Assembly (NCBI GenBank): GCA_025934715.1
Contig: JAICWR010000001.1
Span: 8,387-72,386, forward strand
Origin: Candidatus Saccharimonadota bacterium
Lineage (GTDB): Bacteria; Patescibacteriota; Saccharimonadia; Saccharimonadales; UBA10212
Direction: 5' to 3'
DNA: 64,000 bases
Below are positions 2,440 through 62,401 of the stretch, one piece after another (position 1 is the first letter of the stretch; the number at the start of each line of letters is the position of its first letter). The notes below the pieces were generated by a model, which saw only the letters and a program-made list of their open reading frames with translations, was not told the DNA's origin and did no database searches. The translations under genes were made by a program, and so were the position numbers.

Positions 2440-3447
2440 ATGTCACAAAAACAACTCGATGTCTTATCGGTCGGCGATGTCGTCATTGACGCATTCATAA
2501 AATTGCTGGACGGCGAAGAAAAGCTGGTTAAAGACGGCGACGGCTTTGACCTGGCCATCCCGTTCGGCACTAAAATACCCTTTGACCATGCCGATGTGGT
2601 CCCAGCGGTCGGCAATGCCAGTAACGCTTCGGTGGCCTTCGCCCGTTTGGGCTTGGGTTCAGGGCTGGTCAGTAATATCGGCAATGACGATAACGGCCGG
2701 CAGATCCTGGCCCGTCTAAGTGAAGAAAAGGTGGATGATCGTTTCGTCCATGTCAACCACGGCAAAAAAAGCAACTACCACTATGTGCTTTGGTACAAAG
2801 ACGACCGGACAATTTTGATTAAACATGAAGAATACGATTACCATTGGCCGCGGTTCCGCATAATCGACATCCCAAAGTGGATTTATTTCAGCTCTATCAG
2901 CGAACACGCCATGGAATACCATGACGAAATGGCCGCCTGGTTGGAGTCGCATCCGGCCGTCAAGCTGGCTTTCCAGCCCGGCACCTTCCAGATAGAGGCC
3001 GGCACCAAAAGGCTCAAGAAAATATACGAACATAGTGAAGTTTTAGCCGTGAACCGCGAAGAAGCCACCGAGATTTCGCATGGCGACCACCATGACATCC
3101 ACGACTTGTTTGATAAGCTGCACGCTCTCGGCCCGAAAATCGTGGTGATCAGCGACGGGCACGCCGGCGCCTACGCCAGCGACGGCGCCCAGTGTTACAA
3201 AATGCCGATTTACCCGGATCCTAAACCGCCGTATGACCGTACCGGCGCCGGCGACGCCTTCACATCAACGTTTGTGGCTGCCCTCGCCAAAGGGGCCGAT
3301 ATCCAGGGAGCTTTGCTTTGGGCCCCCATAAATTCGATGAGTGTCGTCCAGAAAGTCGGCGCCCAAGCCGGGTTGCTGACCCAAAAAGAATTGGAAAAAT
3401 ATCTACGGGAAGCGCCTCATTGGTACCACCCCGAAAGGATCAAATGA
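2440..3447 (+). CDS. PfkB-family carbohydrate kinase
   Basis: 335-aa ORF with the C-terminal PfkB signature DRTGAGDAFTSTF and a ribokinase-like N-terminus. Confidence 0.8.
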   Translation: MSQKQLDVLSVGDVVIDAFIKLLDGEEKLVKDGDGFDLAIPFGTKIPFDHADVVPAVGNASNASVAFARLGLGSGLVSNIGNDDNGRQILARLSEEKVDDRFVHVNHGKKSNYHYVLWYKDDRTILIKHEEYDYHWPRFRIIDIPKWIYFSSISEHAMEYHDEMAAWLESHPAVKLAFQPGTFQIEAGTKRLKKIYEHSEVLAVNREEATEISHGDHHDIHDLFDKLHALGPKIVVISDGHAGAYASDGAQCYKMPIYPDPKPPYDRTGAGDAFTSTFVAALAKGADIQGALLWAPINSMSVVQKVGAQAGLLTQKELEKYLREAPHWYHPERIK

Positions 3448-57033: not shown

Positions 57034-59092
57034 AGTACGTAATATTGGCATCATTGCCCATATTGATGCCGGTAAGACCACAACTACAGAGGGCATACTA
57101 TATCGTACCGGCCTGAAGCACAAAATCGGCGCGGTGCATGAGGGTGAGACCACTACCGACTGGATGGCCCAGGAAAAAGAGCGCGGTATCACTATCACGG
57201 CGGCAGCCGTCACTTGCTACTGGAAAGACCACAAAATCAATATCATCGACACACCGGGCCACATCGACTTCACGGTTGAGGTGGAGCGGTCTTTGCGCGT
57301 GCTGGATGGCGCCGTGGTGGTTTTCGACGGCAAAATGGGCGTCGAGAGCCAATCTGAGACCGTCTGGCGTCAGGCCGATAAATATGGGGTGCCCCGCATC
57401 TGTTTCATCAACAAAATCAACCAAACCGGCGGCGATTTTTATAAAAGCCTGGACAGCATCCATAACCGCCTGAACAAGCGAGCCTTTCCCATCCACTTGC
57501 CGATTGGTTTTGAGCAGTCGGTGAAGGGCGTTGTGGACCTGATCGACATGAAATCATATAGCTATGACGAATATACCGACCATGAACTGAAGGTCGGCGA
57601 CGTCCCCGCCGACATGATGGACCAGGCCAAGAAGTACCGCAGCCTATTGGTGGAAAACGCCGTCGCAGAGGACGAGAAAGTCCTGGAACGCTACTTCGAA
57701 GTCGGCGAAGAAGGCCTGACCGAGGATGAAATCCGGCACGCCATCAGAGCCGCCACGCTAACCGGCAAATTTTTCCCCGTGACTGGCGGCGACGGGCGGG
57801 GCGTGATTGTTGAGAAACTGCTTGATGCCGTGAACGACTTTTTGCCAAGCCCTCCCGAAGTTGGTTCGGTTTGGGGGACCAACCCCAAAAACGGCGAGGA
57901 GATCGAGCGCAAACCTGACGCCGCCGAGCCGTTCGCTGCCCTAGCCTTTAAAATCGCGGCCGACCCATTCGTCGGCAAGCTAGCATTCTTTAGAGTTTAT
58001 TCAGGCAAAGTCACAGCCGGAAGTTATATTTTAAATAGCTCAACGGGGGAAAAAGAACGCGTGGGCCGCATCGTCCGCCTGCACGCCGATAAAAGGGAAG
58101 ACGTGGCAGAGGTTGAAGCCGGCGATATCGCCGCGATTGTCGGCCTAAAGGGAACCACAACCGGCAACACTCTTTGCGAGTCAAATAACCCGATAATACT
58201 TGAGAGCATCACCTTTCCGGAGCCACCGGTAAGTATCGCGATTGAGCCCAAAACCAAAGCTGACCAGGAAAAGATGAGCACCGCCCTACAGCGTCTGGCC
58301 GAAGAAGACCCCACCTTTAGGATGAAAGTCGACCACGAAACCGGCCAGACAATTATTTCAGGCATGGGCGAGCTGCACCTAGAGATAATCGTCGACCGCA
58401 TGAAGCGCGAATTCACAGTCGAAGCCAACGTCGGCCAGCCGCAGGTGGCTTATCGAGAGACTATCCGCAAAGACGCCGTCGAATCAGAGGGCAAATATAT
58501 CCGCCAAACCGGCGGCCGCGGCCAGTACGGCCACGTTTGGCTCCGATTATCCCAGAACGAGGCCGGCGAGGGCTTCGAATTCATAAACAACATTAAGGGC
58601 GGGGTGGTACCCCAGGAATACATCCCGGCCGTGCGCTCCGGTGTGGAAGAAGCCATGGCCAATGGCGTGGTCGCCGGCTATCCGGTGGTTGATGTTAAAG
58701 CCGAGCTTTACGATGGTTCCTACCACGACGTGGACTCCTCTGAAATGGCGTTCAAAATCGCCGGCTCCATGGCTTTGCAAGATGGCGTCAAGAAGGCTAG
58801 TCCGGTCCTGCTGGAACCGGTTATGAAGGTGGTGGTGGTCACACCCGAGGACTTCATGGGAGATGTCATTGGCGACCTGAACTCCAAGCGCGGCCGGGTG
58901 GAGAGCATGGAAGATTTGCAAGCCGGAATCAAAGAAATCACCGCGTTCGTGCCGCTGGGGGAGATGTTCGGCTACACCACGAACTTACGAAGTATGACCC
59001 AGGGCCGGGCCAGCTCTAGCATGGAGCTCGACCACTATGCTGATGTTCCGCCCAATGTCGCCCAGAATATCATCACCAAATCCGGCAAATAA
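57005..59092 (+). CDS. fusA: elongation factor G
   Basis: 695 aa with [13 protein letters not shown]1 motif and DTPGHIDF. Confidence 0.98.
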
Positions 59093-59110
59093 CGCGCAAA
59101 GGCTAAGTAC

Positions 59111-59536
59111 ATGCCTCGACGGCTAGAAAAAAATGATTTCACGACTCCGCAGGCAATTGCGGCCGAAGCAGTGGCTGCTCTTTTTTTAGCTTGGAAGTTG
59201 AAGGATAAATACTACCGGAAGGGAACACCTGAGTACTACCAGAGGGACGATACGCCGAGCGAGCCCGAGCCTAGCCCGTATCCCATGAATGAAAGCATCG
59301 GTGATACCGATGTATATCTTTATCCTGGTACGGAAACCGAACCCTTTGTGCTAGGATCCAGGAATCCGTCTGAAGGCTACACTGAGGTTCATGCGATGAT
59401 AGAAGATAATGGCACTGATAAGCCTAAGGTAACCGTTGATGAAAGTAGGTTAGACTCCGATCCGAGCCGGTTGAAGATACTAAGAGACCGGGTCACTGAA
59501 ATCCACCAAGCTTGGAGCAGTAGGGTTGGAGACTAG
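59111..59536 (+). CDS. orphan acidic protein (141 aa) between fusA and tuf
   Basis: Stop-free frame starting 18 nt after the fusA stop. P/E/D-rich. No family recognised. Confidence 0.5.
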   Translation: MPRRLEKNDFTTPQAIAAEAVAALFLAWKLKDKYYRKGTPEYYQRDDTPSEPEPSPYPMNESIGDTDVYLYPGTETEPFVLGSRNPSEGYTEVHAMIEDNGTDKPKVTVDESRLDSDPSRLKILRDRVTEIHQAWSSRVGD

Positions 59537-59544
59537 TCCTCTCT

Positions 59545-59573
59545 TTACAAAACGGTTAATTTCCGCTTATAAT
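59545..59573 (+). promoter_or_regulatory. internal promoter upstream of tuf
   Basis: TTTACA (59545..59550), 17-nt spacer, TATAAT (59568..59573). AAGGAG ribosome-binding site before ATG 59642. Confidence 0.55.
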
Positions 59574-59641: not shown

Positions 59642-60826
59642 ATGGCAGAACAGTTCGACCGCAGCAAGCCGCATGTCAACGTAGGCACCATGGGCCATGT
59701 AGACCACGGTAAGACAACTTTAACCGCAGCTATAACCGCTGTCCTGGCTAAGAAACTGCCCAGCAATATTAATAAACCGGTGGCTTATGACCAGATTGAC
59801 AATGCGCCTGAAGAAAAGGCCCGTGGCATCACTATCGCCACTTCGCACCAAGAGTACGAAAGCGAGAAGCGTCACTATGCCCACGTCGATATGCCCGGCC
59901 ACGCTGACTACGTTAAGAATATGATCACTGGCGCCGCCCAGATTGATGGAGCTATTTTGGTCGTATCTGCCGCTGACGGCCCGATGCCTCAGACTCGCGA
60001 ACATGTGCTATTAGCCCGCCAGGTTGGTGTACCTAAGATATTGGTTTTCTTGAACAAAATGGATCTGGCCGATGCTGAGTTGGTCGAGCTGGTCGAAGAA
60101 GATGTGCGCGACCTGCTGGCTAAGTACGAGTTTGACCGCGAGGCGCCGATAATCAAGGGTTCCGCCACGAAAGCGTTAGAGGGCGATGGTCCAAACGAAG
60201 ACGCCATCATGGAGCTGGTCAAGGCCATGGATGACTACATCCCAGAGCCCGTGCGCGACCTCGACAAACCATTTCTTATGCCGATAGAAGATGTCTTTTC
60301 TATAAAGGGCCGCGGCACAGTCGCAACCGGCCGGGTGGAGCAAGGCATCGTGAAGGTAAATGACGAAGTAGAAGTGGTTGGTATCCGCAAGACCAGTAAA
60401 AGTGTGGTCACTGGTGTCGAGATGTTTAAGAAAAACCTCGACCAGGGGCAAGCCGGCGACAACGTCGGAGTCCTGTTGCGGGGCGTGGAGCGTGATGACA
60501 TCGAGCGCGGCCAGGTTTTGGCCAAGCCCGGTTCAATCACGCCGCATACCGAGTTTGAATCTGAAGTCTACATCCTGACCAAAGAGGAAGGCGGCCGTCA
60601 TACCCCGTTCTTCAAGGGCTATAAGCCACAGTTTTACTTCCGCACCACGGATGTGACCGGCGAGGTTGAACTGCCGGCTGACAAAGAAATGGTGATGCCT
60701 GGCGACACCATCACCTTTAAGGTCAAATTACTGGCGCCGATCGCCATGGACCAAGGCCTGCGCTTCGCTATCCGCGAAGGCGGCCGTACCGTCGGCGCCG
60801 GCGTTGTCACCAAGATCGAGAAATAA
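59642..60826 (+). CDS. tuf: elongation factor Tu
   Basis: 394 aa with [18 protein letters not shown] and NKMD motifs. Confidence 0.98.
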
Positions 60827-60828
60827 AA

Positions 60829-61083
60829 ATGTCACCTGAAGTCAGGCTCCCTCACGAAGATCCAGTCCGATCTAAACTTGAAGAATATTTGGCAGGTATG
60901 AGCGCAGTAAGAGGCCAGGTATTAGATGTGTATTTCATAGATGTGCATGACGATCTCAGTGTTAGAATAACTCCTGACAATGTTGATGCCGAAGAAAATA
61001 AATTAAGGACCCACTTTGCTGAAAGGTATCCTGATTTAGCACCAATTGGCGAAGAACCAAACATTGAACGAGGTGAAAATTAA
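60829..61083 (+). CDS. orphan acidic small protein (84 aa) after tuf
   Basis: ATG lies 2 nt after the tuf stop. Its TAA overlaps the ATG of the rpsJ 5' remnant (TAATG). No family recognised. Confidence 0.5.
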
Positions 61084-61139
61084 TGGCAGAGACAAAAGAA
61101 CACGAAGTCGAGCTCGGGGGGCGTAAAATAAGACCATGA
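61083..61139 (+). pseudogene. duplicated 5' fragment of rpsJ (18-codon remnant [21 protein letters not shown])
   Basis: 61083..61113 matches the true rpsJ start (61426..61456) at 26 of 31 positions, and the first five codons encode the same residues (MAETKE). Its TGA overlaps the ATG of the next ORF (ATGA). Confidence 0.65.
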
Positions 61140-61423
61140 GTTTAACGACCCAAGACTTAAAGCAAATCAGGACTGCAGTCCGCGAGGAGGCGGAATCTGT
61201 TATCAGCGCACGTGTCGAGCCACGGTTCGATAACCTGGATGGCCGCATAGAAGCACTGGGTAATGACGTTAAGGATATTTATAAAATGATATCCGAACTT
61301 CAAAAATTAACTCGACCAATTGCACATATTGAAAAGTATGATCTAGAGCAAAAAGTACTTAAAACTTATCGAAATGTTTTAGCAATAGCCAAGGACGCCG
61401 GAGTAACCTTACCCAGGGAGTAA
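61136..61423 (+). CDS. orphan small protein (95 aa, predicted helical) immediately upstream of rpsJ
   Basis: ~27% G+C in a sampled line. Stop lies 2 nt before the rpsJ ATG, and GGGAG within its 3' end serves as the rpsJ ribosome-binding site. No family recognised. Confidence 0.5.
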
Positions 61424-61425
61424 TC

Positions 61426-61755
61426 ATGGCAGAGACTAAAGAGCCGGAAGTCAAGCAACGGATCCGTATACGCCTAAAGGCCTATGACCACAAGGTCATC
61501 GACCAGTCAGCCAAGCAGATCGTTGATACCGCATTACGTACAGGAGCAAAAATTTCCGGTCCGATTCCTCTGCCAACCAAAAAAAGCACGTTCACTGTAG
61601 TCAAAAGCCCGCATGTTTATAAAAAAGGCCGCGAGCAGTTCGAGATGCGCATCCATAAGCGCTTGATTGATATCAGCGACCCGACGCCAAAGACTATCGA
61701 TTCATTAATGAATTTAAGTCTGCCCGCCGGCTGCGACGCCGAAATTAAAATGTAG
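61426..61755 (+). CDS. rpsJ: 30S ribosomal protein S10
   Basis: 109 aa with typical S10 core ([16 protein letters not shown].., GPIPLPTKK). Confidence 0.97.
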
Positions 61756-61759
61756 ATCA
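61744..61759 (+). repeat. direct repeat, left copy (last codons and stop of rpsJ)
   Basis: ATTAAAATGTAGATCA matches ATTCAAATGTAAACAA at 62086..62101 at 12 of 16 positions. Confidence 0.55.
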
Positions 61760-61762
61760 TCC

Positions 61763-62086
61763 ATGGAACTCCCAAGTGAATTCAAGCAGGCGCTACAGGC
61801 TGCGACGCCGGAAAACTGCATAGGTTGTAAGCGCTTAAAGAGCGTTGCTGAAGCACGCTATGAAGAAGCCAAGAGACGCCGCGCGGATGAAGAGAGCGCC
61901 ACAATGGCGGGACTGTCCGCAGTTGACTCTGCTTGTATTGGACAGACGGAACTCACTCCAGACGAATTATCGCAGCTTCCCTGCGGGACTCCTAATCCTG
62001 GCTGCAGCCGGCGAAAAGAACCCGGGTTTTCAAATAAAGCTGCTTATGCACTTCTGCTTTCGGCTGTTGAATTAGAGTCAATCTGA
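61763..62086 (+). CDS. orphan Cys-containing protein (107 aa; CxxC and Cx6C) separating rpsJ from rplC
   Basis: Starts 7 nt after the rpsJ stop. GC-rich (~63% in a sampled line), unlike the other inserts. No family recognised. Confidence 0.45.
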
Positions 62087-62101
62087 TTCAAATGTAAACA
62101 A
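62086..62101 (+). repeat. direct repeat, right copy
   Basis: See 61744..61759. Confidence 0.55.
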
Positions 62102-62189
62102 AATCACAGCTTTTCATATCATTATCACTTAGACTAAATACTACACAGGTGGAAAGCAGGAAGCCGCTAAGGCTTAAGCCCACCCAAAA

Positions 62190-62212
62190 AGAGCCCAAAA
62201 GAGGGCTCTTTT
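62190..62212 (+). terminator. intrinsic terminator between rpsJ-side genes and rplC
   Basis: AGAGCCC-AAAAGA-GGGCTCT followed by TTTTG. An A-tract upstream could make it bidirectional. Confidence 0.7.
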
Positions 62213-62401
62213 GCATTCCTTGCTGTTTACTTGGCCATGTAAAATTTGCAACGGGTTGACCGAGGTAGAAGTCATATGCTAATCTGTTAAGGACAGTACA
62301 GTTTGTGAGCTTGGTTTCGAATAGGTCTGCTCACTGGTAACAGGGGCAGAAACCGGCGGCGCCAGGCCTTTTAAAATGCTGTCGGAATAGAAAGGTAGCG
62401 G

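Follow-up and report, generated by a model that had tools for sequence, protein, structure and literature searches.

The elongation factor gene tuf and the ribosomal protein gene rpsJ are near neighbours in a 64,000-nucleotide (nt) stretch of DNA from a Candidatus Saccharimonadota bacterium (assembly GCA_025934715.1, contig JAICWR010000001.1, positions 8,387 to 72,386 of the forward strand), which is called the window here and supplies the coordinates used below. The two genes are separated by a 600-nt block (60826–61425) that is absent from the closest relatives and is composed of a small open reading frame (ORF), orf84, a stub that repeats the start of rpsJ, and a cassette carrying a second small ORF, orf95. 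The origin of this stub, and the nature of the cassette that follows it, are the subject of this analysis.

The tuf–rpsJ junction

All features described here lie on the forward (+) strand. The tuf gene (59642–60826) encodes EF-Tu of 394 amino acids (aa) and shares 84% nucleotide and 98% aa identity with tuf of the comparison locus L078. It is followed by orf84 (60829–61083; 84 aa), a fast-evolving ORF, also termed orfX, that would represent the first of two inserts. The stop codon of orf84 overlaps the ATG of the rpsJ stub (61083–61139) in the sequence TAATG (61081–61085), and a Shine–Dalgarno (SD)-like GAGGTG, taken to be the former ribosome-binding site of rpsJ, is found at 61070–61075, 7 nt before that ATG. 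The stub forms an ORF of 18 codons, the TGA of which (61137–61139) in turn overlaps the ATG of orf95 (61136–61138) as ATGA (61136–61139). Both junctions thus have the overlapping stop and start codons that are typical of coupled genes. The 95 aa ORF orf95 (61136–61423) terminates at 61421–61423, 2 nt before the intact rpsJ gene (61426–61755), and its last codons contain GGGAG (61416–61420), which lies 5 nt ahead of the rpsJ ATG and now serves as the ribosome-binding site of that gene. An initial annotation of this DNA had described the two overlaps, the GAGGTG, the 18-codon remnant and the contribution of orf95 to the rpsJ ribosome-binding site, and each of these was recovered at exactly the positions given. 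The intact rpsJ gene encodes an S10 protein of 109 aa, in which residues 14–108 match the Pfam family PF00338 (E=1.2e-37; 128.6 bits against a curated cut-off of 21.2).

A truncated copy of the rpsJ start

The first 31 bases of the stub (61083–61113) and of intact rpsJ (61426–61456, the right copy of the duplication) are identical at 26 positions, remain in frame through codon 10 and both encode MAETKE, precisely as first described. Alignment of the two copies established that the similarity exceeds the context of the ATG and ribosome-binding site. A degenerate pattern describing both copies has only these two matches in the 64 kb, and none of 100 shuffled sequences gave two matches. Past base 31, ungapped identity drops to background (29/40, 34/57), and a weak CGG...GTA match extends to about base 52 when a small indel is allowed. 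The left copy is probably a decaying stub; past base 31, the window's version has degenerated and contains an indel. When the five differences between stub and gene are polarised with relatives, the changes in the stub are non-synonymous (Pro to His, Lys to Glu), whilst the intact gene has a single synonymous one. As the PF00338 domain begins at residue 14, the stub therefore spans the variable N-terminal extension of S10.

The same order of a small ORF, an rpsJ stub, an orf95 homologue and, after 2–5 nt, rpsJ is present in four other assemblies. In L008 the stub reads MADTERDPEVKQRIQIGVK and its stop lies 4 nt before the orf95 ATG, whilst that of L027, MADKKAEPEIKQRIKLMLEYSTL, overlaps orf95 as ATGA. 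The stubs of L028 (MVKAKKPEVK, in which a CAG became TAG) and L039 (MADAKKMDAQRP, with a premature TAG) both end about 20 nt upstream of orf95. Stub lengths across the five genomes are 18, 19, 23, 10 and 12 codons, with differing frames and ends, and neither the peptide nor the ORF length is kept among carriers in the manner of a conserved leader peptide or upstream ORF (uORF). The L008 and L027 stubs reach the conserved KQRI(R/Q/K) core and, because these copies are longer (about 48 and 60 nt), the original duplication was probably about 45–60 nt and not 31. The SD sequence before the stub is not kept in L008 or L028, and the GGGAG at the end of the cassette is shared with L008 only, the cassette ends of L027, L028 and L039 lacking it. 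The orf95 protein of L008 is 85% identical to that of the window, compared with 38–49% aa identity for L027, L028 and L039, which defines two deeply different subtypes. The context inside rpsJ is polyphyletic in a neighbour-joining tree of this short protein, in which the deep split alone is trustworthy.

As these four independent assemblies (L008, L027, L028 and L039) come from different samples and have the same architecture, an assembly artefact is ruled out. It could still be supposed that the rpsJ start was duplicated locally in tandem and that an ORF arose de novo between the copies, or that chance similarity or misassembly is responsible, an account that needs nothing more than two similar 31-mers 343 nt apart. 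However, orf95 is old and widespread, with 293 representatives and many loci, the shuffled sequences exclude chance and the layout recurs between assemblies, which makes such an account hardly credible.

Empty, intermediate and filled sites among relatives

The nearest relatives were retrieved with the S10 protein of the window and reveal three states of the locus. In the first, which is found in L078–L083 (whose S10 protein is identical to that of the window) and in L076, nothing separates tuf from rpsJ; the L078–L083 junction reads ...GAGAAATAATGGCC, that is, tuf and rpsJ overlap directly as TAATG. The second state, in L075, L073/74, L071 and L072, has a single ORF of 69–84 aa between the two genes, which is joined to rpsJ through TAATG in L075 and L073/74 and through a few-base spacer in L071 and L072. 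The third, tuf–orfX–stub–orf95–rpsJ, is that of the window, L008, L027, L028 and L039. The TAATG junction is thereby found also in L073, L075, L076, L078–L083 and, in addition, L009. When the window and L078 are aligned globally, there is a single gap of 600 nt, which corresponds to 60826–61425.

Some of the ORFs that occupy this slot resemble orf84. Those of L075 (84 aa) and L071 share motifs with it (RYPDL, and GLQAVK, which resembles GMSAVR), and orf74 of L009 is 36% identical to it (tblastn E=1e-7), likewise ends in RGEN and is TAATG-coupled to rpsJ. Whether followed by rpsJ or by the stub, the slot after tuf holds an ORF of 69–101 aa, of which only some pairs are recognisably related (window 60829–61083; L071 152–383; L072 2765–2995; L073 2792–3001; L075 555–809; and, at the other stub-bearing loci, L008 414–656; L027 2627–2932; L028 2689–2976; L039 1084–1317). 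This is either a hypervariable gene or one that has been repeatedly replaced.

The existence of empty and intermediate sites, together with the single 600-nt gap, bears out the reconstruction of a coupled ORF followed by an insertion inside the rpsJ start. In the initial annotation, orf84 had been held to have once been coupled directly to rpsJ, and ORFs in the same slot of L075, L073/74 and L009 do overlap rpsJ in this way. Its proposal of two successive insertions is supported by the three states, which include relatives that lack the 95 aa ORF, and by the gap relative to L078. An entry of the second insert inside rpsJ, with the 5' end of the gene rebuilt, also stands, as the layout recurs in L008, L027, L028 and L039; its placement about 31 nt into the gene does not, the longer stubs of these relatives indicating a point that is probably some 45–55 nt in.

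The exact orf95 and orf84 proteins are absent from a collection of 15 billion proteins, in which the exact S10 protein is present (16 contigs by contig look-up; 5 in the cluster listing). All six contigs shown with this exact S10 lack both inserts, and the filled allele therefore seems to be rare or unsampled.

The orf95 cassette as a discrete unit

Comparison with L008 sets the bounds of the cassette at 61123–61423. The two sequences are 86% identical at the nucleotide level from GTAAAATAAGAC, 16 nt before the orf95 ATG, to the orf95 stop, and beyond either limit this identity is lost in the space of a few bases. The GTAAAATAAGAC junction shared by the window and L008 was considered as proof of one insertion event and rejected, because this sequence is the cassette's own left end. 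Identity at third codon positions between the window and L008 is 0.758 in orf95, compared with 0.43 in the rpsJ core and 0.575 at the 3' end of tuf (Fisher test, p=1.2e-5 for orf95 against rpsJ and 6.6e-5 against rpsJ and tuf pooled); even the closest pair of hosts, the window and L078, reaches only 0.53–0.57. By this measure, the window's copy of the cassette would be much younger than the genes that surround it.

A cassette younger than its flanks also favours a different history, in which orf84–stub–orf95, or stub–orf95, formed in some other member of the Saccharimonadales and entered this genome in a single step by natural transformation and homologous recombination in tuf and rpsJ; the window would then preserve the events without having been their site. 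Consistent with this, the 600 nt are missing as a whole, and not orf95 alone, from the relatives whose S10 protein is closest, and the stub is about as similar to the rpsJ of relatives as to its own. However, a tract of homologous recombination would extend into the flanks, whereas the window and L008 diverge only a few bases beyond either end of the cassette. In addition, orf84 is without a close counterpart in any sampled genome, and import leaves both the first origin of the structure and the repeats at other targets (see below) unexplained. Such an import is possible, but the balance of these points is against it.

Members of the orf95 family are found in several other contexts. In L001, L003, L004, L009, L010 and others, the gene lies between the tuf terminator and a long rpsJ leader. 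In L022, L041/42, L051, L053/54 and L056, 3' fragments of tRNA-Gln (GGTTCGAATCCCTCATCCCCAGCCA) follow 5–16 nt past the stop codon; the tRNA-Gln 3' 25-mers at these paralogous loci, whose situation is not that of the window, have 0–3 mismatches. An intact tRNA-Gln heads an array in L022 in which the cassette is preceded by an 18-nt fragment and followed by one of 25 nt. In L048 the gene is found in the 3' end of the RNase III gene (rnc), and further members lie at other sites. Flanking repeats were sought by local alignment of 160 nt upstream with 300–400 nt downstream of each locus, with mismatched flank pairs as the control, and 8 of 39 loci exceeded the 99th percentile of such pairs (p=5e-9). 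At L048 the direct repeat matches at 31 of 34 positions (246–279 and 579–612; z=19.6) and both copies can encode the RNase III C-terminus. Further significant direct repeats are those of L045 and L023 (about 50 nt), L019 (17/18), L046, L022 and the rpsJ cases. Of the features that characterise transposable elements, therefore, direct target repeats and copies at unrelated sites with discrete ends were both found, and empty sites were found at the tuf/rpsJ site only (L075, L071–L074, L076 and L078–L083). Identity between the window and L008 already drops just after the orf95 stop, which speaks against a restored gene end that was carried by the element itself, but the stretch compared is short and the stub resembles foreign rpsJ about as closely as its own.

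Three of the duplicated targets have a GAATCC-like core in common, which is present in the tRNA-Gln T-loop (TTCGAATCCCTC; L016, L022 and L051), in the rnc repeat (CCGAATCCGCC) and in rpsJ, where it takes the form of a CGGAT-nnnn-ATCCG palindrome contributed by the RIRIR codons (about 12–17; window 61467–61480; L028 about 3393–3410). This core could be either a target preference or a coincidence. If the former, the cassette might be integrated site-specifically by a trans-acting, tyrosine-type integrase that normally targets the tRNA-Gln T-arm and uses the rpsJ palindrome as a secondary site. In favour of this are the tRNA-Gln fragments directly past the stop in at least five loci, the L022 array, the 10/12 match between rpsJ of L028 (TTAGAATCCGTC) and the T-loop, the CGAATCC within the rnc repeat and the ends of the stubs, which fall near the RIRIR-coding palindrome. 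Against it, no integrase lies within 2–3 kb of any locus examined and the repeats of L019, L045 and L046 lack the motif. Integration of this kind would further require some 45 nt from the 5' end of rpsJ to be part of the cassette, whereas the similarity of the window to L008 drops right past the stop. The shared motif, moreover, is at the left end of the repeat in tRNA, inside it in rnc and at its right end in rpsJ, and an integrase that seeks the T-arm is consequently judged improbable.

Single-gene segments bounded by tRNA-Gln sequences were also observed in their own right. In L022 (2178–3308) and L024 (1469–2256), an intact tRNA-Gln is followed by a segment with one gene and then by a 3' tRNA-Gln fragment. 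The enclosed gene of L024 encodes a nucleoside triphosphate (NTP) pyrophosphatase of the Ham1 family, and the orf95 homologue of L022 is in a second fragment-bounded unit. These arrays suggest that the region downstream of tRNA-Gln in Saccharimonadales is a general hotspot for insertions accompanied by duplication of fragments.

Cassette start and expression

The start of the cassette has a characteristic anatomy. A -10-like box, TAAAAT (61124–61129), is located within GTAAAATAAGAC, 6 nt before the orf95 ATG, and orf95 itself lacks an SD sequence. Among 40 family members, 38 start with ATGA (Met-Ser) and 35 possess a TAnnnT hexamer that matches TATAAT at four or more positions and ends 4–11 nt before the ATG, with a modal spacing of 6; in 20 of the 40 the hexamer has an upstream TGn, and SD-like tetramers occur in only 4. 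The control for this box is imperfect, in that 19 of 46 long ORFs of the window also carry one when the first ATG is taken as the start. This geometry would fit a leaderless or near-leaderless transcript. The left end TAAAATAAGACCATGA, in both the window and L008, is A/T-rich, with stop codons in every reading frame, and any ORF that reads into the cassette therefore terminates at or just before the orf95 ATG.

It follows from these all-frame stops that both overlaps were inherited or are intrinsic, and were not built by selection. The relay of stop and start codons is largely a by-product, the TAATG being the old junction of orfX with rpsJ and the ATGA the cassette's own start. The ATGA overlap was also considered on its own as a selected feature and was down-weighted, since 38 of the 40 members start with ATGA whatever the context. 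It might nevertheless be proposed that the stub is kept as a uORF that feeds ribosomes to the SD-less orf95 or ties orf95 to the control of rpsJ. Compatible with such a role, every one of the five genomes that share this layout has an intact stub ATG, the stubs of the window and L027 stop in an ATGA overlap with orf95, that of L008 stops 4 nt short of the orf95 ATG, and the region is unstructured. Set against this, the peptide is not conserved: the window has a changed frame relative to L008, a TAG ends the stub about 20 nt upstream in L028 and L039, and the decay is non-synonymous. The loss of the SD sequence before the stub in L008 and L028, the 35 of 40 family loci without any such upstream ORF and the intrinsic nature of both ATGA and the all-frame stops are likewise at odds with it, and selection for a relay is accordingly considered rather unlikely.

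RNA folding gave no stable structure at the junction of the stub and orf95 (z=+1.1). A sigma-70-like promoter (TTTACA-18-TATAAT; 59544–59573; 11/12 match) precedes tuf and is conserved, together with its leader, in L078. From tuf to rpsJ, a terminator scan revealed no site with a convincing T-tail; the sole hit on the + strand (61179–61194) is inside orf95 and is followed by ATCTGTTATC, with almost no T-run. A terminator-like hairpin read from the sequence, AGAGCCC-aaaaga-GGGCTCT with TTTT (62190–62213), occurs beyond rpsJ and the next ORF, orf107, and has four T residues only, hence its omission by the scan. With this promoter, this hairpin and no convincing terminator between them, tuf, orf84, the stub, orf95, rpsJ and orf107 probably form one transcript.

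The orf95 protein family

Fourteen close homologues of orf95 share 57–85% identity with it, and an exhaustive profile search recovered 293 representative proteins of the family (E<=1e-3), which range in length from 82 to 185 aa. A scan of one genome per species yielded 26 loci and a metagenome scan a further 35. Of the 26 genome loci, all those with lineage-naming titles belong to Candidatus Saccharibacteria/Saccharimonadales, and a few are titled only 'bacterium'. Searches of Pfam, PHROGs, NCBIfam and PADLOC returned no significant match for orf95, only sub-threshold coiled-coil noise, and viral contigs of IMG/VR contained no orf95 relative, which lends no support to a phage origin. The AlphaFold2 model predicts a single long helix (residues 5–87; predicted local distance difference test (pLDDT) score of 72). 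Literature searches found no description of a Saccharibacteria element of this kind.

Some family members are longer, at 130–185 aa, and repeat an N-terminal heptad-like segment (IRxIVREE...), the profile search matching two or three stretches per protein (L017 2995–3399; L026 2740–3201; L020 2737–3201). This points to a putative internal repeat expansion in a helical protein.

Origin of the stub

Taken together, these observations favour a reading, to which we assign a probability of roughly 0.8, in which the 31-base copy represents a 5' end of rpsJ that was orphaned by a movable cassette when this inserted into rpsJ with duplication of its target. In the ancestor, tuf and rpsJ would have been translationally coupled as TAATG. 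A first insert, orf84, would then have entered between them and retained the TAATG coupling to rpsJ. Subsequently, a cassette of about 300 nt, comprising a -10-like box, an SD-less start 6 nt downstream and the gene for a 95 aa helical protein, would have entered some 45–55 nt inside rpsJ. The rpsJ bases from the ATG to the point of entry would thereby have come to lie on both sides of the cassette, the right copy keeping rpsJ intact and the left one persisting as a stub in which the original ATG and ribosome-binding site survive. Transcripts initiated at the tuf promoter would extend through the whole block, and ribosomes translating the stub would terminate on the orf95 ATG, where they could reinitiate at the SD-less start. 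The end of orf95 would supply GGGAG to rpsJ, and the cassette's own -10-like box may give rise to a second transcript of orf95 and rpsJ.

A number of observations weigh against this reading. Flanking repeats were absent or undetectable at 31 of the 39 loci, including many with the order tuf–terminator–orf95–leader–rpsJ, and those found vary in length from about 18 to more than 60 nt. Neither the fixed short duplication length nor the multiple copies per genome of a transposable element were found, the scan revealing one orf95 copy per representative genome, unlike an actively transposing element. The cassette, whose sole ORF is orf95, contains no transposase, and inspection of the window/L008 alignment identified no inverted repeat at its ends. 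No att-like core was found in or next to it, and a listing of ORFs of at least 110 aa within 2–3 kb of seven cassette loci revealed no recombinase or integrase; the adjacent ORFs scanned encode HD domain, 2'-5' RNA ligase-like, Ham1, endonuclease/exonuclease/phosphatase and double-stranded RNA-binding domain proteins. The window stub matches its own rpsJ at 26 of 31 positions and that of relatives at 23–25 of 31, and this near-equality makes duplication in situ indistinguishable from import of a foreign copy. All comparison genomes are near-saturated at synonymous sites, which leaves the order and number of events in this lineage undatable, and recombination with a relative could have brought in all 600 nt of the block in a single event. 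Finally, transcription of the block, translation of the stub and reinitiation are deduced from sequence alone.

Insertion with target duplication nevertheless remains the preferred reading, and the rpsJ scar itself is an ordinary outcome of such an event. A cassette family with long and variable target repeats in a lineage of the Candidate Phyla Radiation (CPR) seems to be the undescribed part. More tentatively, and with some doubt, orf95 may represent a class of minimal mobile gene, in which a unit of about 300 nt that consists of a promoter and a leaderless ORF, and lacks a recombinase, depends on a host or unlinked activity for its insertion within or beside loci with a role in translation (the tRNA-Gln T-arm, the rpsJ start, the rnc end), leaving long and variable duplications. 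By landing inside essential genes that are regenerated, such a unit would become hard to lose and would gain both read-through and coupling.

Relation to known systems

Integrative elements insert into the ends of tRNA, transfer-messenger RNA (tmRNA) and protein genes, and leave a displaced fragment of the gene as a direct repeat; Williams is said to have reviewed the tRNA sublocations that they use, in Nucleic Acids Research in 2002. The orf95 cassette resembles them in being placed between an intact target and an orphan end-fragment, with repeats of tens of bases, tRNA-Gln fragments that start from the T-loop and the tandem array of L022. It differs in its size of about 0.3 kb, in encoding one helical protein of 95 aa and no integrase, in the heterogeneity of its targets (rpsJ 5', rnc 3', tRNA-Gln and others) and in a restored gene end that is apparently not cassette-borne.

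Homing endonuclease genes of the seg and mob type in T4-like phages are free-standing, selfish small genes that have their own promoters and reside between essential genes. They have in common with orf95 a small, self-expressed ORF amid conserved and highly expressed genes and a presence/absence polymorphism among relatives. However, orf95, as a single predicted helix, has no nuclease motif or fold, and homing does not produce target duplications. The cassettes of integrons lack a promoter, have attC at their end and cause no duplication of the target. The orf95 cassette is similar to these as a single small ORF, free of a recombinase and presumably mobilised in trans, that forms arrays near a fixed site (tRNA-Gln), but it has a -10-like box, no recognisable attC and target repeats around it. 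With the orf95 stop 2–5 nt from rpsJ there is no room for attC, and no integrase was seen.

Translational coupling by overlapping stop and start codons (TAATG, ATGA) is established in operons of ribosomal proteins and elongation factors. The junctions of tuf with rpsJ in relatives, of orfX with rpsJ (both TAATG) and of the stub with orf95 (ATGA) are textbook examples of this geometry; in contrast to such operons, one link here is the start of a truncated pseudogene and the overlaps were inherited, not built. Elements of the IS1634/IS1549 type generate target duplications of 8–514 bp, which are long, variable and without a mechanistic model (PMC2266710). The long direct target repeats of variable length that flank the cassette are comparable. 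These elements, however, are 1.5–2 kb in length, multicopy and equipped with a DDE transposase and terminal inverted repeats, whereas the cassette has none of these and is apparently single-copy per genome.

Neighbouring genes and leaders

For orf84, too, Pfam, PHROGs, NCBIfam and PADLOC yielded nothing above sub-threshold coiled-coil noise, and a word-based homologue search was also empty. Downstream of rpsJ, orf107 (61763–62086) is a small Cys-containing ORF and the last gene before the hairpin and T-run. A 107 aa ORF occupies the same position in L078, L080, L081 and L082, with barely similar sequence. Upstream, orf141 (141 aa; 59111–59536, in the region 59092–59542) lies between fusA and the tuf promoter and has no family match; for both orf107 and orf141, Pfam, PHROGs, NCBIfam and PADLOC gave sub-threshold coiled-coil noise only. 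L078 lacks orf141, the conserved promoter and leader of tuf beginning almost immediately after its fusA stop, and orf141 is another lineage-specific insertion of a small gene. Tests for flanking repeats around orf84 and orf141 found none in either.

The content of the gap between rpsJ and rplC is also variable. In the window (61756–62401) it contains some 190 nt of non-coding sequence besides orf107 and the terminator-like hairpin, whilst L072 has a gene resembling inosine monophosphate (IMP) cyclohydrolase, L071 a 648 aa ORF, L076 an acyltransferase on the opposite strand and L003 three ORFs. The rpsJ gene of this clade appears to be expressed with tuf, and not with the remainder of the S10 operon.

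In genomes with a spaced layout, rpsJ or orfX is preceded by a conserved leader (GTAAACTAATCG..., ...GAGAACTTGGCGGTCACTCATAAC.CCGT.CAAGGTTAC; L001 4800–4990; L003 605–787; L009 863–976), which has no Rfam match at the gathering threshold. More generally, Rfam identified no known leader or RNA family in the window or in the loci with a long rpsJ leader. The leader of these spaced genomes may be an undescribed S10-operon leader of Saccharibacteria.

Implications

The tuf–rpsJ locus provides a clean record, with a living example for each step, of how small genes can be wedged between highly conserved and highly expressed genes with neither being broken. The locus is also a warning to annotators, in that neither the 18-codon stub nor the cassette is among the called proteins of the 15-billion collection, in which the neighbouring S10 is present. 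Beyond this locus, the data point to an undescribed family of helical proteins in CPR bacteria, the genes of which would move as self-contained promoter-and-ORF units flanked by long target duplications. If this mobility is true, it would supply genetic tools for Saccharibacteria with a natural site of insertion and a template for cassettes, and the family would constitute a new and very small form of mobile DNA in a lineage that has tiny genomes and few known mobile elements.

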